DNA of 64,000 nt from a virus, in IMG/VR virus record IMGVR_UViG_3300048582_000084, positions 1 to 64,000 of that record; one strand, given 5' to 3'. Under the pieces are notes generated by a model. That model was given only the letters and a program-made list of their open reading frames with translations, was not told where the DNA came from and searched no databases. Below are positions 1,434-63,874 of this stretch, piece by piece (positions within the stretch are counted from its first letter, which is position 1; each line of letters begins with the position of its first letter). The position numbers and the translations under genes are program-made.

Positions 1434-2939
1434 ATGATTTACTCCGCTACATCTTCCCTATTTACCTCGCTTCCAAACACGACCGCAACGAATGGCGAGT
1501 ACCTGTTTTGGTGGCCCTACTGGCAGACCATTCGCGACTGCCTCATGGGCGAGATTCTCGTCAAGCAGCGCAAGGAGCGATACCTCCCCAAGGTCGAGGC
1601 GCAGAGCGCCATTGAGTACGAAGCATATCTCGCTCGCGCCACCTTCTACAACGCGACCTCTCGCACCGTATCTGGACTTGTCGGCTCCGTCCACAGGCGC
1701 ACGCCTGTAATCGAAGGCCTACCTGATTCGATTGACCTAACGAATATCACCAACGACGGTCAGTCGTTTGAGATGTTCATGAAGAAGGTGACACGCGAAG
1801 TCATCGCGATGGGCCGATACGGCGTGATGATCGATGCCCCACCAGACGGTGGAGACCCCTATTTCGTAGGCTTTGATGCCGAAGACATCGTTGACTGGTC
1901 TACGACCAGAGTAGGCAGCCGCGAGAAGCTTGAATACGTCGTGCTTCGTGAAGTGAAGCGTGTACGTCTCCCATTCACAGCGACGGCGAACGAGCTGGTC
2001 GAGACCTACCGTGTTCTACTTATCGACGACGACGGGTTTTACAAGCAGCGCGTTTTCGACAGCGGCTCTCTAAACGGACCCGACTACATGGAGTACGTTC
2101 CGCTTCTACAGGGACGCCCGATGACGGAAATTCCGTTCCTGTTCATCAGCCCCTACGATTTCGGCTTCGAAGTCGAGAAGCCTCCGATTCTCGACATCGC
2201 TCTTCTCAATCTATCTCACTATCGCAGCTACGCCCAGCTTGAGGCAGGCCGGTACTACACCGCTACGCCGGTCTACACCGTATTCCTCCAGGGCGGCGGT
2301 GACGATGATACAGAGTTCAAGGTCGGTCCTAACGTGGTCTGGCAGCTCGGCAGCCAGGACAAGGCCGAAATTATGGAATTCAAGGGCTCTGGGCTCGCGT
2401 ACCTAGAGAACGCGCTCTTGACCAAGGAGCAGCAGATCGCAGCGCTGGGTGGGAAGTTGTCTGGCGCCTCTCGCGGCGGCGCTGCGGAGGCTCCTGAAGC
2501 CATCATGGCGCGAGAGCGCGGCGAAGCGTCGTTCCTCGGTTCGGTTGTGGCGACGATCAGCGAGACCGGCAGCCGCCTGTTGAGCGCTCTAGCAACTTGG
2601 CGCGGCACGCCTGCGGAAATTTCCGTGACGTATTCCTCCGAAGCGACCGAGATTTACCTCGACGGGCGCGAGATTCGCGCAATGGCGATGCTCTACGACA
2701 CCGGTCTCATGCCGCTGGAGACGATCTTTGCGGTCTTCAAGCAGAACAACATCATCCCTGCGGGTCTGTCGTTCGAAGAGTTTGAGACTATGCTGCCGCA
2801 ACGGGCTCCGAAGGTGGAAAACAAGGTGGTCGAGGCAGAAGAAAAGGCGAAGATTGAGCAAAAATACGCTCCACCGGAGCCTTCGACGCCTCCTTCAGCC
2901 ACTCGACAGCGACCTACACCGCGTAATTCACGCGGATAA
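1434..2939 (+). CDS. Portal protein (DUF4055-like)
   Basis: 501 aa; YLPK...YEAYLARATFYN, GRYGVMIDAP and PPILDIALLNLSHYRSYA match this portal family; first structural gene. Confidence 0.85.
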   Translation: MIYSATSSLFTSLPNTTATNGEYLFWWPYWQTIRDCLMGEILVKQRKERYLPKVEAQSAIEYEAYLARATFYNATSRTVSGLVGSVHRRTPVIEGLPDSIDLTNITNDGQSFEMFMKKVTREVIAMGRYGVMIDAPPDGGDPYFVGFDAEDIVDWSTTRVGSREKLEYVVLREVKRVRLPFTATANELVETYRVLLIDDDGFYKQRVFDSGSLNGPDYMEYVPLLQGRPMTEIPFLFISPYDFGFEVEKPPILDIALLNLSHYRSYAQLEAGRYYTATPVYTVFLQGGGDDDTEFKVGPNVVWQLGSQDKAEIMEFKGSGLAYLENALLTKEQQIAALGGKLSGASRGGAAEAPEAIMARERGEASFLGSVVATISETGSRLLSALATWRGTPAEISVTYSSEATEIYLDGREIRAMAMLYDTGLMPLETIFAVFKQNNIIPAGLSFEEFETMLPQRAPKVENKVVEAEEKAKIEQKYAPPEPSTPPSATRQRPTPRNSRG

Positions 2940-3145: not shown

Positions 3146-3994
3146 ATGCCTATTTGGATGAAGCACTACGTCGATCTACCTGTGTTCTATCGCGCTCCTG
3201 AAGGGACCGATGGCGGCGGCGGGGACGACAACAAGAATACCCCTGGAGACGACAACGGCGCAGTCGCCGGAACCTCCGCAGGCGGCGAAGACGTCGCCAA
3301 GCTGATTGAGAAGGCGGTCGCAGACGCTGTCGCGGGCCTTCGAAAGAAGAACGAAGAAGTCATTGGGGACAACAAGAAGCTTAAGGATCAGATCAACACT
3401 CTGAAGTCTAAGCCCGCTCTGTCTGATGACGAATACTCCGAATTTAAGTCCCTCAAGGAGCGCATGGAGCGCGACGAGTTCCTGAAGGCGCTCGCTGAGG
3501 GGAAGAGCGAAGAGGTCATCGAGAAGGTGACCCGCAAGACCAAGCTCGATTACGAAGCGAAGCTCGCCGCAGAGGCTGAGGCACGCACGAAGACCGAGAC
3601 AGAAGCGAACGCATGGCGCGCTCGATACGAAGAGACACTGATCAATGCGGAGATTAAGTCCGCTGCTGCTGGGTCGGTGAAGCCGCAGTACCAAGACCTA
3701 GTCGCTCGCCTTGTCGGGGACCGGGTTAAGCTAGTGGACGGCGCAGTACGCGTCGTGAATTCCGACGGCGACATCGAGATGTCGGTCAACGGGACTAAGC
3801 CGCTGGCAGTGTCTGAGCTAGTCGAGTCGCTACGCGCTACCTATACCGATCTGTTTCTCACTTCCACGGGAGGTGGCACGACCGGGTCCACGAAGCGAGG
3901 TTCTGGTACGACCAGCAACAAGATCGCTGTCGAAGTCGCCTCGACCATGTCAGTTGAAGACTACATGAAGGCGCGCGCTGAGGGCCGGATTTAA
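3146..3994 (+). CDS. Head scaffolding protein
   Basis: 282 aa coiled coil; GLRKKNEEV near the N-terminus, GGG-rich linker and MSVEDY...ARAEGRI at the C-terminus; follows portal. Confidence 0.8.
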   Translation: MPIWMKHYVDLPVFYRAPEGTDGGGGDDNKNTPGDDNGAVAGTSAGGEDVAKLIEKAVADAVAGLRKKNEEVIGDNKKLKDQINTLKSKPALSDDEYSEFKSLKERMERDEFLKALAEGKSEEVIEKVTRKTKLDYEAKLAAEAEARTKTETEANAWRARYEETLINAEIKSAAAGSVKPQYQDLVARLVGDRVKLVDGAVRVVNSDGDIEMSVNGTKPLAVSELVESLRATYTDLFLTSTGGGTTGSTKRGSGTTSNKIAVEVASTMSVEDYMKARAEGRI

Positions 3995-4034
3995 TATCCC
4001 CCTTCTCTCCGATCTCTTAACCTGAACATCATCC

Positions 4035-50030: not shown

Positions 50031-50582
50031 TTACTTATTAACCCCAGTGTATTTGGCGAATGCTCCGTGATGCGTGATTGCCGCTTCTGCGTATGCTGCG
50101 GCAGCCTCTTCGGCACTATCGAAATGGCCTAGGAAGCGCTGTTTACCGCCGTGATATATGCAGGCTCGCCATTTGTCCCGTTCAGCGCGAAAAGTTACAC
50201 CCTTAATTCCGCTCTTCGAATCTTTGTGATGGCGCCTATTATGTATGTTCTGAGTCCGTGAGGCTTCGCGCAGATTAGACGGCCTGTTGTTGGTGGGATT
50301 GCCGTCGATATGGTCGATTTCATCCGCTGGCCATCTGCCGTTCTCAAGAGCGAAAACTATTCGGTGTGCAAGGTGGTGGACGCCGCTTATACTAACGATG
50401 ACGAACCCGTGTGTTTTATCTTTGTGCCCCGCTACTTGTCCCGCGAAGCGTGTATTCCATGTCTTTACGTGCCTACTATGTCCCGACCTTATTTTCCAAA
50501 TCAGAGTCCCAGTTGTTTTATCTAGGTCCAGCCTCGTTCTTATGTAGGCGATAGCTTGTGGTGTTTCGTCTTTCTTTGGCAT
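50031..50582 (-). CDS. HNH endonuclease with AP2-like domain
   Basis: AHR, IDHIDG...NNR.SNLR, SGIKGV, LG.F...EEAA. Confidence 0.9.
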   Translation of the reverse strand: MPKKDETPQAIAYIRTRLDLDKTTGTLIWKIRSGHSRHVKTWNTRFAGQVAGHKDKTHGFVIVSISGVHHLAHRIVFALENGRWPADEIDHIDGNPTNNRPSNLREASRTQNIHNRRHHKDSKSGIKGVTFRAERDKWRACIYHGGKQRFLGHFDSAEEAAAAYAEAAITHHGAFAKYTGVNK

Positions 50583-50612
50583 TAAAAGGAGACCCAAAGG
50601 TCTCCTTTATAG

Positions 50613-51876: not shown

Positions 51877-53271
51877 TTACATACGGTTCGACCGCGCGCG
51901 GATATCCGCGAACGTCTGGTCATTGAGTGCGGTGCCGTTCCCGAACACCGGGTCCAGTACGTCATCCAAGTCTAGGATATCGCCCCCAAACTTATCGACA
52001 GTTGTGTACTCGCCGGTCCACCTGTCGCGGACGAGCGCTAGTCTGCCCGTCTTCGACCGCTTGCCGGGGTCTGTGACCGGGTCCTTCTGCACGTCGCGCC
52101 ATTGTCCGTTCGCACGGATGGCGCTGCACTTCATCGCGAACTTCTGCGTGTCACGGTTGATGCCCTGTAGAAGAGCGCCACCCATGCCGAACGCGATGTT
52201 GTCGGCAGAGAATCCAGTCTTGGTCAGCTCTTGTAGAATCGAGGTAATCGAATCCGCATTGATGCCGTCGCCCTGGATGACACGGACGTTGTTCAGGACG
52301 TGGTAGCCCTTACTGTTCGTTGTGTACCCAAACTTCGACGCGAGACGCGCCACCGCCACGACGGGTGTCAGCACGGGATCGCCGCTGTCAGGCCGGATCA
52401 CGACCGTGGCGCCGCTATTGACGACGTCCTCGCGGAGCTTGTCGCCCCAGAGATTGTCGATAGCGTTCCAGAGGTCGTAGGAGTCGCTCACCACAGCGAC
52501 GAGGCTTCCAGGCTTGGCGAACTTCCAGAGCATGTTTCTGTACGCATGCTCTTCGTTACTCCTACCCCACGAAGTGATCGTGGAGTGTTCCGAAGCAGGG
52601 ATCGAGAACCCCGCCATGCCAGCCTTGTAGAAGCGGTTGGCAGCGAGAACACCCTCGACGGTGTCGGAGCCCATGAAGTTGACGAGGTGAGCAGCACCAC
52701 CAATGGCCGCGCTCTCTGCACTCGACACACCCCTCGCGCCGAAGTCGTGAAGCTTGAACGGGAGCTGTCCCTCAGGATCGTCCGACGTCTCTGTTAGTGT
52801 CTTCCGGATGATCTGCTTGATATGCCAGGACTGCGTCGCGACCGTCGTCGGATACCAGACCGCTCGCAGGAGCGCCGTCTCAAGATACGACGTCAGCCAG
52901 AAGCACTTCGGGTCCGTGTTAACGACGGTCGCCAGCACGTTCTTCGTCGGGACCACCAAGCCTTCCGGCACCGCGCGAATCAGCACGGGCAGGAATCCGT
53001 CGTGGGCCTTGACGATGTAGTCCCAACCTTCGCGGTTGAACGGAAGACCATGCGCCTGGAAAAAGGTTTCGGCTTCGTCCACGTCCTTGGCGGAAATGGG
53101 CTTCAGCAGGTATCGCTTGATGAACATCTGAAGACCGAAGAACAGGGTACGGTCGTGGGCGCCGCCGCGAGACTCGATATACGAGTAGACGTACTCGGTG
53201 CCGGGCGGGTACTGGACGAAGTGGGAGGACTTATAAGAGTCCACCATCAGAAGAATGTTGTCGTTGTACAT
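51877..53271 (-). CDS. nadV: Nicotinamide phosphoribosyltransferase
   Basis: DSYK.SH..QYP, HDFGARG, PASEHS, VSDSYD, RPDSGDP, IQGDG, FGMGG.LLQ. Confidence 0.97.
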   Translation of the reverse strand: MYNDNILLMVDSYKSSHFVQYPPGTEYVYSYIESRGGAHDRTLFFGLQMFIKRYLLKPISAKDVDEAETFFQAHGLPFNREGWDYIVKAHDGFLPVLIRAVPEGLVVPTKNVLATVVNTDPKCFWLTSYLETALLRAVWYPTTVATQSWHIKQIIRKTLTETSDDPEGQLPFKLHDFGARGVSSAESAAIGGAAHLVNFMGSDTVEGVLAANRFYKAGMAGFSIPASEHSTITSWGRSNEEHAYRNMLWKFAKPGSLVAVVSDSYDLWNAIDNLWGDKLREDVVNSGATVVIRPDSGDPVLTPVVAVARLASKFGYTTNSKGYHVLNNVRVIQGDGINADSITSILQELTKTGFSADNIAFGMGGALLQGINRDTQKFAMKCSAIRANGQWRDVQKDPVTDPGKRSKTGRLALVRDRWTGEYTTVDKFGGDILDLDDVLDPVFGNGTALNDQTFADIRARSNRM

Positions 53272-53274
53272 TGT

Positions 53275-53322
53275 GGATAAGAACTCCTCTATCCGGTTAT
53301 GAGTCCCGTCTTTCGAGGACCC
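53275..53322 (-). promoter_or_regulatory. nadV structured leader (GAAAGAC-loop hairpin plus SD-enclosing hairpin)
   Basis: Same architecture as the 55161-55210 leader. Confidence 0.6.
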
Positions 53323-53374
53323 AAAAAACAGCGGAAGAGTACTTCGATACCATAAATTATGTTACAATAATTGT

Positions 53375-54157
53375 ATGATTACAAAATACGGATTTATCTA
53401 CATCACTACTAATACGGCTAATGGTAAGCAGTACATAGGCAAGCGTTCGTACATGAAAAACGGGTGGGAGCGTTATCTCGGCTCAGGGAAGCTTCTGCTT
53501 CGGGCAATTCGAAAGTACGGGAGGACGTCATTCAGCCGGGAAATTATCTACGAGTCCTTCTCCAAAGAAGACTTAGATGCCGCCGAAAGGTCGGTCATCC
53601 GCAGTCTCAGCGCTGTTGAATCAGAGGCGTTCTATAATCTCTCTCCCGGTGGGAGTGGGACATCGTTTGGGTTTATGGGTAAGAAGCATAGTGCCGATAC
53701 TAGGGCTCGGATGTGCGCTTCAGCCAGGAAGGAAAACTCCAGACGGCAGATTACCGATAAACTTCGGAAGGCCACATCGGAGAATGGTAAAAATTCTATT
53801 GGAAAGCTTATCGCATATCGTAGAAGTATTGGCTATCAGACCGGTGCGGAACACCCAAGGAGTATACCAGTCACCGTCGATGGTGTTCTGTACAACTCAG
53901 TGTCTGCGGCCAAAGAAGCAGGGTATCGCTACAAAGACATCAAAGCACTTATCGCGGGGGAAGTTAGCGAGATCGACACTAGTACAAAAGGGCGCGGCCC
54001 AGCGAAGGCAGCGCACCTATTTGGCGTACATTATCAATCAATAGCAGCAGCCTGCCGAGCGCTGGGGCTGACGCGCAGAGAAGTTAAGGCTCTCACAGAG
54101 AACGCCACATACACATCAGAATATCTTGGTGGTCCTCAAACATCATCGACCGCTTGA
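53375..54157 (+). CDS. GIY-YIG (Seg-like) homing endonuclease with NUMOD repeats
   Basis: GFIY.TTN..NGK.YIGK, YLGSG, FYNL..GG, GKKHS; opposite strand and AT-rich. Confidence 0.92.
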   Translation: MITKYGFIYITTNTANGKQYIGKRSYMKNGWERYLGSGKLLLRAIRKYGRTSFSREIIYESFSKEDLDAAERSVIRSLSAVESEAFYNLSPGGSGTSFGFMGKKHSADTRARMCASARKENSRRQITDKLRKATSENGKNSIGKLIAYRRSIGYQTGAEHPRSIPVTVDGVLYNSVSAAKEAGYRYKDIKALIAGEVSEIDTSTKGRGPAKAAHLFGVHYQSIAAACRALGLTRREVKALTENATYTSEYLGGPQTSSTA

Positions 54158-55160
54158 CGTGGTTGATGTGCCACCACTGCGCCTTACTTGCGTCGCTGGA
54201 CGCCTTGACCGCTGGCAGTCCATCGCCGTGCGGCGGTAGGTGGATCAGCGAGGCATGTGTGATCGTGCGACCGCGTAGCGACCGACCTGGGTCATCGAAG
54301 ACTTTGGTGGTTACGACGTTTCCGCGAAGTACGGCTTCGGGAACCTTGAGACGCGTCTCTTCGCGAAGCTCGCGGATCGTCGCATCGAGGATGCGCTCGC
54401 CTTGGTCTAGGAAGCCCCCAGGAAGCGCCCAGAGACCCCTGCCCGGCTCAGCCCGGCGCTCGACCAGTAGGATGTGACTGGACTGCACCACGACCGCGTC
54501 CACCGTCACGAAGGTTGGTGGGTATGGGGCGGATGCCCAAGACGCTCGGTACTTATCGATGAAGGCCTTCTCGGCTTCAAGCTGCTCCCGTGCCGGTGTC
54601 CAGTAGAAGCTGCCATCAGCTTCAACGTCCGTGCTGAGGAACTTCTGGACGCCTACCGGGAGGTAGTCCCACAGCCCCGCGCTGTTCCATTTGGACGAGA
54701 AGTAGGCGTTGCGGAAATCAGTCGCGCTGATGGGCTTGCCCTTCTGCGTGTGCTGTCCGGCCTCCACGAACTTCCATTGAGGAAACATTCGCACATGGGA
54801 TGCGCCTGCATCCTTGTCGTGACCGACATGGATGACGGTAGGGAGGTGTTCGGAATCCGCGCTGAGGATGATGTCGTCAACCGCAGCGACTACCGCCGCT
54901 TCCCAGGCACCGTCGTTGTAGACGGAATCCTCAATAGGAACGAAGGTGACGTGCTTGTTTTCGAAATCGGTCAGGCAGGCGCGAATCATGGTCTCGCGCT
55001 CTTCATGCGTAAACGGGTTCTTGACAGTTCGCGGGCCGAAGCTGGACCCGAGAATGACGATAACGTGGGAAGCCAACGATAGCGCCTGAGTTAGGACGTG
55101 AAAGTGGCCAAGATGAAAGGGCTGAAAACGCCCAATGTAAACTGCATAGTCTGCTCGCAT
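54093..55160 (-). CDS. nadM: Bifunctional NMN adenylyltransferase / ADP-ribose Nudix hydrolase
   Basis: IGRFQPFHLGH, SAT..R, TVDAVV, LPGGF.....E......RELREET, RGRTITHA, FEDH. Confidence 0.96.
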   Translation of the reverse strand: MRADYAVYIGRFQPFHLGHFHVLTQALSLASHVIVILGSSFGPRTVKNPFTHEERETMIRACLTDFENKHVTFVPIEDSVYNDGAWEAAVVAAVDDIILSADSEHLPTVIHVGHDKDAGASHVRMFPQWKFVEAGQHTQKGKPISATDFRNAYFSSKWNSAGLWDYLPVGVQKFLSTDVEADGSFYWTPAREQLEAEKAFIDKYRASWASAPYPPTFVTVDAVVVQSSHILLVERRAEPGRGLWALPGGFLDQGERILDATIRELREETRLKVPEAVLRGNVVTTKVFDDPGRSLRGRTITHASLIHLPPHGDGLPAVKASSDASKAQWWHINHVKRSMMFEDHQDILMCMWRSL

Positions 55161-55210
55161 AGCAATACTCCATTGCTTAGTTTGGCGACCGCCCGTCTAT
55201 CGTGACGGTC
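55161..55210 (-). promoter_or_regulatory. nadM structured leader (GATAGAC-loop hairpin plus SD-enclosing hairpin)
   Basis: Same architecture as the 53275-53322 leader. Confidence 0.6.
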
Positions 55211-55237
55211 AAAAGGAGACCGGAAGGTCTCCTTTAT

Positions 55238-56125
55238 TTACCGATACTTACTCAGCAGCCCGTCGATATCTCGGACCAACTGATCTATCGACGGGTCGCG
55301 CTGAACTACGACCGCCATCGAGCCGTAGTAGTTCTCAAGGCAGTCGAGAAGTAAGGCCTTGAGCGCGCGTTCGTTTGCCTGCTCCGGAAGTTTGGATTCG
55401 GCGTACTGCTTCTCCAAAGAATGCTCCTTCTCAGTGAAGTAGCGCTCCAAATCTTCGAACTTCCAGTCACCACGTCGGATCGACTTTAGCTGCTCGCGGT
55501 TGCGTTCGATGTCGAGGTCGCCCTCGACGAGGATTTGCTCGACCTCGTTCAAGAGTCGTACAGTGTGGTAGGCATACTTCAGATCGTAGCCGTGTTCTGC
55601 AATCGACTCTGCGCGGGCTGGATTAAGCGACGCGGTCTTGTCCCTAATCTTGCCCATCTGCCCGTAGGCATAGCCCTTGAACTTCGGCCAGCAGCCTTTA
55701 TGCAAGAACTCGCGGCGGCGTTCACGGACCATCTCCGCAACCGGTGTCGTGTGAAGGACACAGCGGCGTGGCGTGAACAGGCTGTTTAGCATGTTCGGAT
55801 TATTGTCCATGCAAAGCTGAAAGTACTTTACGATGGAGAAGACCGCGAAGTCGTAGGTCTGGTCCTTGCCGTCCGGATTCTTGATGTGGTGATGTTGCCA
55901 CTGTTCGAATCGCTTGGGCTGTTCTCCGAAGCCTGGAATGACGCCCTGTAGGTGGGGGAAGATGTCCTCCTTGGGAGGAACGCAGAATCCGTAGATATCC
56001 ATGTCGGACGTGTCGGCCGAGACGCCGTAAGCGTTGCTGCCCATCATCGTCAGGTATGCTGTCTGGCCTGGGAGCCACTTCGGTGGGTGGGCGGCTCCAG
56101 CAGCCACCAGTTTGTCGAGGATCAT
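55238..56125 (-). CDS. Pol-beta superfamily nucleotidyltransferase (RlaP-like)
   Basis: GS.AYG.....SD.D, NPN, GYD.K..H..RL. Confidence 0.88.
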   Translation of the reverse strand: MILDKLVAAGAAHPPKWLPGQTAYLTMMGSNAYGVSADTSDMDIYGFCVPPKEDIFPHLQGVIPGFGEQPKRFEQWQHHHIKNPDGKDQTYDFAVFSIVKYFQLCMDNNPNMLNSLFTPRRCVLHTTPVAEMVRERRREFLHKGCWPKFKGYAYGQMGKIRDKTASLNPARAESIAEHGYDLKYAYHTVRLLNEVEQILVEGDLDIERNREQLKSIRRGDWKFEDLERYFTEKEHSLEKQYAESKLPEQANERALKALLLDCLENYYGSMAVVVQRDPSIDQLVRDIDGLLSKYR

Positions 56126-56384: not shown

Positions 56385-56848
56385 CAGCACGCACCTCGCG
56401 CGTCGATAGCCTTGAACCCATACTCGATCAGGACTGGAATATCGGTCTCGCTGAGAGTCAGGCTCATGGGGAGCAACCAGCGAAGGTTGGGCATCAGGTC
56501 GAGGTCCGGACGAACCAGTACATCGCCGTCGAAGATGCGAACTTCTTCACTCTCGGGAGAACGAACTTCATCGAGGATCGATGGCGGGAGAATGGTGACG
56601 AAGCAGTCGATCTCAAATCCAGCCTGTTTGTCCCGTAGAATAGCGAACTTCTGCCATACGGTGTGGAAAATCGACACACCGGTCTCTTCGCGGAACTCGC
56701 GAGCCATTGCGGCATGAGGGTCCTCGCCCGGTTCGATCTTACCGCCGACGCCGTTCCATTTCCCTGCCATCCAATCAGGACGGTCTTTCTTAATTAGGGT
56801 CACACGAATGTCGTAATCGAAGGCAAAACCTAGTACATAGTGTTGCAT
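56384..56848 (-). CDS. Nudix hydrolase
   Basis: GGKIEPGE....AM.REFREETG. Confidence 0.92.
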   Translation of the reverse strand: MQHYVLGFAFDYDIRVTLIKKDRPDWMAGKWNGVGGKIEPGEDPHAAMAREFREETGVSIFHTVWQKFAILRDKQAGFEIDCFVTILPPSILDEVRSPESEEVRIFDGDVLVRPDLDLMPNLRWLLPMSLTLSETDIPVLIEYGFKAIDARGAC

Positions 56849-56901
56849 CTAAAGTCCTTTAAGTTTGTAGAAAGGGAGGCCCGAAGGCCTCCCTCAGTCA
56901 A

Positions 56902-63785: not shown

Positions 63786-63874
63786 TGGTGGGCGATGTAG
63801 GATTCGAACCTACTCACTCCCTAAGGAGAACAGATTTACAGTCTGTCGCGACTCTCCAACTTCGCCGCTCGCCC
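63786..63874 (-). tRNA. tRNA-Tyr(GTA)
   Basis: GGGCGA/TCGCCC acceptor, ACAGA-CTGTAAA-TCTGT anticodon arm, long variable arm, GTTCGAATC, encoded CCA. Confidence 0.95.

Follow-up and report, generated by a model that had tools for sequence, protein, structure and literature searches.

The viral DNA analysed here, positions 1 to 64,000 of IMG/VR virus record IMGVR_UViG_3300048582_000084 (hereafter the window: the whole 64,000-nucleotide stretch), carries on its minus strand two genes of nicotinamide adenine dinucleotide (NAD) salvage, nadM and nadV. Each of them is preceded by a short leader in which three parts can be distinguished: (i) a stem-loop with the heptamer GAWAGAC at its apex (hairpin 1); (ii) a linker; and (iii) a second hairpin that encloses the Shine-Dalgarno (SD) sequence GGAG (hairpin 2). 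A first-pass annotation of the window had drawn attention to both leaders, and they do lie on the strand and at the coordinates it gave, letter for letter (Table 1). The leader is a widespread RNA family, present in many unrelated phages and in a few bacteria, and it probably controls the amount of enzyme that is made.

Table 1. The two leaders, the genes that they precede and other features of the window.
Feature	Position	Strand	Description
nadM leader, hairpin 1	55210-55187	-	7-bp stem, bulged A, C-G pair, G-C closing an AUAGA pentaloop; heptamer GATAGAC at 55201-55195
nadM leader, linker	55186-55178	-	9 nucleotides, G-poor
nadM leader, hairpin 2	55177-55161	-	encloses SD GGAG (55171-55168); ends at the ATG (55160)
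nadM	55160-54093	-	355 aa; bifunctional nicotinamide mononucleotide (NMN) adenylyltransferase and Nudix ADP-ribose pyrophosphatase; Pfam CTP_transf_like 8e-13, NUDIX 8e-18
nadV leader, hairpin 1	53322-53301	-	6-bp stem, bulged U, C-G pair, G-C closing an AAAGA pentaloop; heptamer GAAAGAC at 53314-53308
nadV leader, linker	53300-53295	-	6 nucleotides
nadV leader, hairpin 2	53294-53275	-	encloses GGAG (53287-53284); followed by ACA and the ATG (53271)
nadV	53271-51877	-	464 aa; nicotinamide phosphoribosyltransferase; Pfam NAMPT_N 1e-28, NAPRTase 5e-63
RlaP-like nucleotidyltransferase gene	56182-55238	-	upstream neighbour of nadM; stop codon 55240-55238
Terminator-like hairpin	55235-55212	-	immediately 3' of the RlaP-like stop; RNAfold -15.4 kcal/mol, z -5.3, 0/200 shuffles as good
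GIY-YIG (SegE-like) homing-endonuclease gene	53375-54157	+	between nadM and nadV, opposite strand; Pfam SegE_GIY-YIG 1.3e-8
Weak sigma-70-like promoter match	53356-53384	-	TTGTAA-17-CATAAT, 9/12 positions; upstream of the nadV leader
Second endonuclease-type gene	50031-50597	-	HNH_3 and AP2 domains; 1.3 kb downstream of nadV
tRNA gene	63789-63874	-	Rfam tRNA, 43 bits

Folding with RNAfold gives hairpin 1 a free energy of -11.6 kcal/mol before nadM (z -3.3, none of 200 shuffles as good) and of -10.5 kcal/mol before nadV (z -3.0, two of 200). Hairpin 2 of nadM reaches -4.2 kcal/mol, which is equalled by three of 200 shuffles, and hairpin 2 of nadV, taken alone, is no better than its shuffles (-5.2 kcal/mol, 40 of 200 as good). 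The earlier description of the leaders also needs correction. The conserved heptamer stands, but it does not form a loop of seven nucleotides (nt), since RNAfold pairs its G with its C and leaves a pentaloop; a hairpin does enclose GGAG before each start codon, although the pairing given for nadM has to be redrawn, with seven pairs and a GAG triloop in the best fold; and the distance from heptamer to start, which had been put at 27-30 nt, measures 34 nt to the AUG of nadM and 36 nt to that of nadV.

In the window, the leader takes a GC-rich form with the bulged base two pairs below the loop. The exact 11-mer CGAWAGACGGG occurs there twice against 0.10 expected, a count that one of 100 shuffles reaches; with one mismatch allowed it is not enriched in the window (3 found, 3.15 expected), and the 81-kb record holds no further copy. 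As for the other GANAGAC heptamers of the window, they have at most three flanking pairs and no start codon nearby, and none of them sits in a comparable stem.

Loci were collected around relatives of the two enzymes: 80 viral loci around NadM relatives, 80 bacterial loci, and 80 viral loci around NadV relatives. At the nearest NadM loci, the same design is found upstream of the gene, built from stem sequences that are unrelated. A model-free count over the first 84 loci found GAWAGAC flanked by at least six perfect pairs 45 times on the gene strand and never on the other. In a MAFFT alignment of 42 leaders, picked by regular expression for a stem next to the loop so that the pairing of helix 1 (but not that of helix 2) is partly selected, the two helices are 89.8% paired, against 50.8% after shuffling (reached by none of 500 shuffles) and 38-46% in slid controls. 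Double-sided changes occur in all 12 pairs of the two helices, and the stem arms take four to six pair types per position around a conserved loop centre. In helix 2 of the family, pairing amounts to 93% and all five pairs show compensatory changes. Six of the 48 sequences of set A2 were misaligned by MAFFT and dropped, namely the window nadV leader, both leaders of locus L007, L023:3925, L009:5203 and L074:5002. The collection of upstream regions, which the first-pass annotation had proposed as a check, shows the motif recurring before nadM and nadV with covariation, and the 42-leader alignment bears out its claim that the RNA is structured, its stems covarying around a loop that is conserved.

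A covariance model (R1) extends these results. At E<=1, it gave 82 matches in the window and 79 NadM-centred viral loci (82/82 on the sense strand of the gene), 23 in the 80 bacterial loci (23/23) and 110 in the 80 NadV-centred viral loci (110/110), that is, 215 of 215 on the sense strand; the NadM-centred scan left aside L004-L006, L014 and L041, whose leaders are identical to those of L003, L012 and L040. When the threshold is relaxed to E<=3, a single match out of 68 falls on the antisense strand (L043, 15 bits). By hand count, E<=0.01 is reached in 37/80 sources among the NadM-centred viral loci, in 13/80 among the bacterial loci and in 50/80 among the NadV-centred loci. The spacing between heptamer and AUG peaks at 31-34 nt, with a usual range of 25-38 nt. 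In the light of these counts, it is very hard to credit that the element acts at the level of DNA, as an operator, a promoter element or a homing-endonuclease target which is palindromic by chance. An inverted repeat near promoters would suit such a site, as would the GIY-YIG endonuclease gene lying between the two window copies. But relatives carry the leaders without the endonuclease gene, the distance to the AUG is fixed, the arms are free to vary around a conserved centre (the reverse of what a dimeric DNA operator shows), and all the matches at E<=1 are sense-strand; the last two of these points are the reason why the leader is not read as a DNA box.

The membership of the two window leaders was assessed with a second covariance model (R2), whose training set included neither the window nor L007. 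Its score for the nadM leader is 39.9 bits (E 6e-8; 39.5 bits with R1), which makes this leader a strong member of the family. The nadV leader reaches 15.6 bits (E 0.07), on par with a decoy at 56843-56894 on the minus strand (15.7 bits). This decoy, in which a terminator-like hairpin stands before an SD hairpin and an ATG and the loop motif is absent, was considered as a third family copy in the window and rejected as a terminator plus SD; its score means that a layout of hairpin plus SD hairpin alone yields about 15 bits. Because its R2 score is weak and equals that of the decoy, the nadV leader is called divergent. Judged by its letters and position, it appears to be a family member nonetheless, mainly on the strength of its AAAGA loop, its 36-nt spacing, its place before nadV and its orthologue in L007, whose nadV leader scores 28.2 bits with R2 and has a hairpin 2 sequence in common with it. 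Both window leaders show the family layout: a stem with an R-N-A-G-A pentaloop, a GGAG hairpin, the spacing, the sense strand and an NAD gene downstream.

Family members occur in AT-rich and GC-rich phages, cyanobacteria, and alpha- and gamma-proteobacteria. Five phage genomes (235-519 kb, at least 90% complete) have two to three matches each; the nine matches in them with E below 1e-5 precede nadM or nadV, and the weaker ones are a nadM leader in G006 (23.2 bits) and two sites at unannotated open reading frames (ORFs; 24.8 and 19.8 bits). Exactly two matches, both strong, are found in the 147,673-bp genome of RcXuper, a cultured phage of Rhodobacter capsulatus; they stand before nadM and nadV, with leaders at 89291-89342 and 90539-90590. 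In five bacterial genomes, all of them part of the R2 training set, one to two sites each were found. The genes behind the leader are not limited to the pair in the window: in L013, a strong copy precedes the quinolinate synthase NadA; in Thalassospira xianhensis, the leader stands before nadM and before the gene for the glutamine-dependent NAD synthetase NadE; and a few small ORFs of 98-124 aa without a Pfam family lie behind strong copies inside NAD loci. The claim that the motif is limited to NAD genes is supported by these data, given that no comparable site exists elsewhere in the window and that large phage genomes hold two to three sites each. Among bacteria, the scans gave matches in 4/151 genomes of the order of Thalassospira and in 4/151 cyanobacteria, and the new matches are weak or false except for one nadV leader (L270).

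Regarding the anatomy of the loop, an unbiased scan of 385 distinct nadM and nadV leaders found a pentaloop hairpin 24-64 nt before the AUG in 295 of them; here, as in the leader-class and loop-pair scans, start codons come from a heuristic that is sometimes wrong, which inflates the classes "none" and "other". A-G stands at loop positions 3-4 in 147/295 of these hairpins, against 4/303 on the reverse complement. The closing pair of the loop is G-C in 115 cases, C-G in 13 and A-U in 10; heptamer positions 2 and 6 are A.A in 114, G.U in 15 and G.A in 8; position 3 is free, mostly U; and A4 and G5 are set by the selection criterion, the control having shown A-G to be far above chance. Among 167 catalogued family instances, the commonest loops are G-AUAGA-C (124), followed by G-AAAGA-C (12), and G-GAAGA-C is found in 10. 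The linker of the family is G-poor, with no position conserved. The apex of hairpin 2 (G-GAG-U) repeats the loop pattern of hairpin 1, and such like apices would suit a dimeric loop-binding factor. Inspection by eye of about 15 leaders revealed no stretch in the linker, in the SD loop or around the start that complements the loop consistently and could form a pseudoknot or a kissing contact. A general rule in which an upstream ORF terminates at the UAG of the loop was rejected (it holds for 7 of 123 GAUAGAC instances, and the other two frames give 9 and 1).

The contrast between a fixed loop and free stems also bears on the reading in which the leader is passive, hairpin 1 being a 5'-terminal stabiliser or a ribosome standby site, hairpin 2 tuning initiation, and both being conserved through transfer of the NAD cassette. 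Hairpin 2 is found without hairpin 1 in many leaders, as this reading would allow, and in AT-rich phages a sigma-70-like promoter ends so few bases before hairpin 1 that the latter would be the 5' end of the mRNA. A stabiliser, though, needs no invariant loop, and yet A-G exceeds its controls as described while the stems are free; even in genomes as large as 519 kb, it is only NAD genes that have the element; and what precedes hairpin 1, in the window as in its relatives, is a terminator and not a promoter. A passive role is, for these reasons, quite improbable.

The Rfam catalogue returned no family for the leader. Rfam 15 at gathering score matched only the tRNA gene in the window; no family was returned for positions 53000-55500, which include both leaders, at E<=10, nor for eight loci with strong copies at E<=5. 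The covariance scan that the first-pass annotation had called for was hence run and gave no match, with the NAD+-I and NAD+-II riboswitch classes included. A search of the main texts of the open literature found no description of the leader. According to the accessible part of the NARP2 preprint, Nampt and Nmnat form a phage anti-defence pathway against NAD-depleting immunity, and the pathway overproduces NAD and consumes phosphoribosyl pyrophosphate (PRPP). The same part of its text is silent on the control of the pathway, with zero occurrences of "riboswitch", "UTR" (untranslated region) and "hairpin".

As to how the leader might work, the reading that is tentatively favoured here is translational control in which the loop of hairpin 1 is read by a trans-acting factor, most likely the NadM-type enzyme, in autogenous feedback. 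The element would act on the initiation of translation. Hairpin 2 would keep the ribosome-binding site in a weak stem, and hairpin 1 would be the recognition site of the factor which, once bound, would exclude the 30S subunit. A heptamer spacing of 31-34 nt from the AUG is within reach of a bound 30S subunit. The factor would most likely be the NadM-type enzyme encoded next to the leader, possibly together with an NAD-related ligand. Such feedback would limit the drain of PRPP and adenosine triphosphate (ATP) and the overproduction of NAD, a rationale that is drawn from the overproduction of NAD and consumption of PRPP reported in the accessible part of the NARP2 preprint.

The evidence that points to NadM comes from the distribution of loop classes. 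Loops of the A.A type (G-AUAGA-C) are found in 57 leaders whose NadM is at least 37% identical to that of the window and in 0/37 leaders whose NadM is below 37%; loops of the G.U type (G-GUAGU-C) are found in 12/37 of the latter and in 1/175 of the others. Hairpin 1 of the nadV leader, too, is present in 0/29 cases with a divergent NadM and in 67/98 otherwise. On the NadV tree (FastTree), in turn, the hairpin 1 states interleave, with at least eight changes forced by well-supported branches. Moreover, a rare loop before one of the two genes recurs before the other in the same genome seven times, against 0.5 expected. At L172, L179, L189, L190, L201, L216 and other loci, NadM is 31-35% identical to that of the window, the nadM loop is G-GUAGU-C or G-GCAGU-C, and the nadV leader is devoid of hairpin 1. 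NadV was considered as the loop-reading factor and rejected, because Thalassospira xianhensis has the leader and gave no match to NadV. To our knowledge, the bacterial hosts found here lack CsrA, and CsrA-type binding was set aside on that ground.

Several observations weigh against autogenous control by NadM: (i) by Pfam, NadM has the domains CTP_transf_like and NUDIX only, and no known RNA-binding domain; (ii) the leader adjoins nadM and the two are inherited or swapped together, which confounds the association of loop class with NadM clade; (iii) seven related cyanobacterial loci have C-GGAGA-G before nadM and G-AUAGA-C before nadV in one genome, so that a single factor would have to accept both loops; (iv) one bacterial match of 29 bits lies in a genome that gave generic Nudix matches only, a case of limited weight because the match sits at a contig end; (v) many NadM-bearing phages have no hairpin 1, among them the KVP40-type phage phi-pp2 and Klebsiella phage Miro, and Stenotrophomonas phage Bhz51 has hairpin 2 only, in consequence of which any autoregulation by NadM would be limited to part of the enzyme family; and (vi) NadA and NadE as further targets fit a metabolite sensor equally well.

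In a metabolite riboswitch, the two mini-hairpins and their linker would be an aptamer for NAD+, NMN, ADP-ribose, nicotinamide or PRPP, and the ligand would alter access to the SD sequence. The set of genes behind the leader (nadM, nadV and those for NadA and NadE) is purely one of NAD metabolism; the spread over AT-rich and GC-rich phages, cyanobacteria and two classes of proteobacteria means that no shared host protein is required; two different hairpin 1 loops can serve one genome; and tiny two-hairpin riboswitches with conservation in the loops only do exist, as guanidine-II illustrates. Against an aptamer stand the small size of the conserved core, only about 5-7 nt plus the SD sequence, and the absence of a conserved linker position, of a conserved internal loop or junction and of any pseudoknot seen among the leaders inspected. 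No complementarity exists between the two loops, the loop class shifts with the NadM clade, hairpin 2 commonly occurs without hairpin 1, and the element is rare in bacteria (the two sets of 151 genomes mentioned above), where the new weak matches look false. A riboswitch is, on balance, somewhat unlikely, though a serious candidate. Its most specific form, a new third kind of NAD-pathway riboswitch, made of two mini-hairpins, with which phages would sense a collapse of NAD+ or a surge of ADP-ribose and nicotinamide brought about by NAD-depleting defences and would turn on the rebuilding of NAD only then, is unlikely.

The surroundings of the two leaders in the window differ. The terminator-like hairpin behind the RlaP-like gene was passed over by a scan for consensus terminators, because it has only four T; its U-run abuts hairpin 1 of nadM, and L007 and L009 are arranged alike. 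Inside the nadM leader, no sigma-70 or Caulobacter-type promoter was evident by eye or in a promoter scan. As hairpin 1 abuts the U-run of the terminator and no promoter is evident, the arrangement suggests that transcription runs through the terminator-like hairpin into nadM. A weak promoter of its own may serve nadV; the region has three sigma-70-like sites where 2.3 are expected, and the match at 53356-53384 alone is therefore no evidence. The GIY-YIG insert has a G+C content of 42-51%, compared with 58-64% for its flanks, and the nadV leader survived the insertion of this gene. Where the window has the GIY-YIG gene, L007, L009 and RcXuper have an ORF of about 60 aa, which in L009 (5031-5219) and RcXuper (L273 3532-3714) is zinc-ribbon-like, with the pattern Cys-x2-Cys...Cys-x2-Cys, and lies between nadM and nadV. 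In both of these, the zinc-ribbon-like ORF stops at the UAG in the middle of the loop that hairpin 1 presents before nadV.

Other neighbours of the NAD genes can be mentioned briefly. Genes of RNA-repair type adjoin them both in the window (the RlaP-like gene) and in RcXuper (an RNA ligase and a polynucleotide kinase; L273 1-1457 and 5303-6008), and in RcXuper a DNA ligase gene follows nadV. L008, the second-closest NadM relative (55% identity), has no hairpin 1 at 3940-4000; a sigma-70-like promoter and a different hairpin are found there, and the apparent start codon is ATT, against ATG in the others. The viral contig L055 carries an alphaproteobacterial-type permuted transfer-messenger RNA gene about 2 kb upstream of nadM (1563-1930, plus strand; Rfam alpha_tmRNA, 130.8 bits).

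A dedicated and conserved leader before nadM and nadV means that the NARP2 pathway is regulated. Since the RNA is compact (about 55 nt), what reads it can be identified at the bench, whether it is a small molecule or an enzyme that moonlights as an RNA-binding repressor. Both outcomes would be novel if true: a translational repressor that is also an NAD enzyme, or a class of riboswitch found chiefly in viruses. A direct test is possible, because RcXuper, with its two strong copies, is in culture.

Among known systems, the NrtR-type DNA operator has strand-independent conserved half-sites, and the leader does not (a comparison made with the box consensus as generally known, without a scan for it). 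The guanidine-II riboswitch (mini-ykkC) resembles the leader: two small hairpins, with covarying stems and conservation in the loops only, are separated by a linker that varies, and the downstream one lies at the SD sequence. In guanidine-II, two identical ACGR tetraloops kiss around the ligand; the loops of the leader, in contrast, are unlike each other (AUAGA and GGAGU) and non-complementary, and there is no Rfam match. The lambdoid boxB, bound by the N protein through GNRNA pentaloops, is likewise a short stem with a purine-rich pentaloop, and the G-GAAGA-C loop in 10/167 leaders recalls it; boxB differs in that it serves transcription antitermination and is tied neither to NAD genes nor to any set spacing before an AUG. 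The operators of Escherichia coli thrS and of gene 43 and gene 32 of phages T4 and RB69 are autogenous translational operators read by the encoded protein. With them the leader shares a hairpin recognised through its loop, at or near the ribosome-binding site of its own gene, and the proposed logic of translational feedback. It differs in that one type of operator would serve two to four genes and in having no sequence similarity to them; furthermore, the leader is a candidate operator known from its sequence, and NadM is without a known RNA-binding activity. The NAD+-I (nadA motif) and NAD+-II (pnuC motif) riboswitches are, like the leader, cis-regulatory leaders of genes of NAD metabolism, from which it is set apart by the absence of an Rfam match and by its size and architecture. 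The leader is a new family within a known kind, that of cis-regulatory mRNA leaders.

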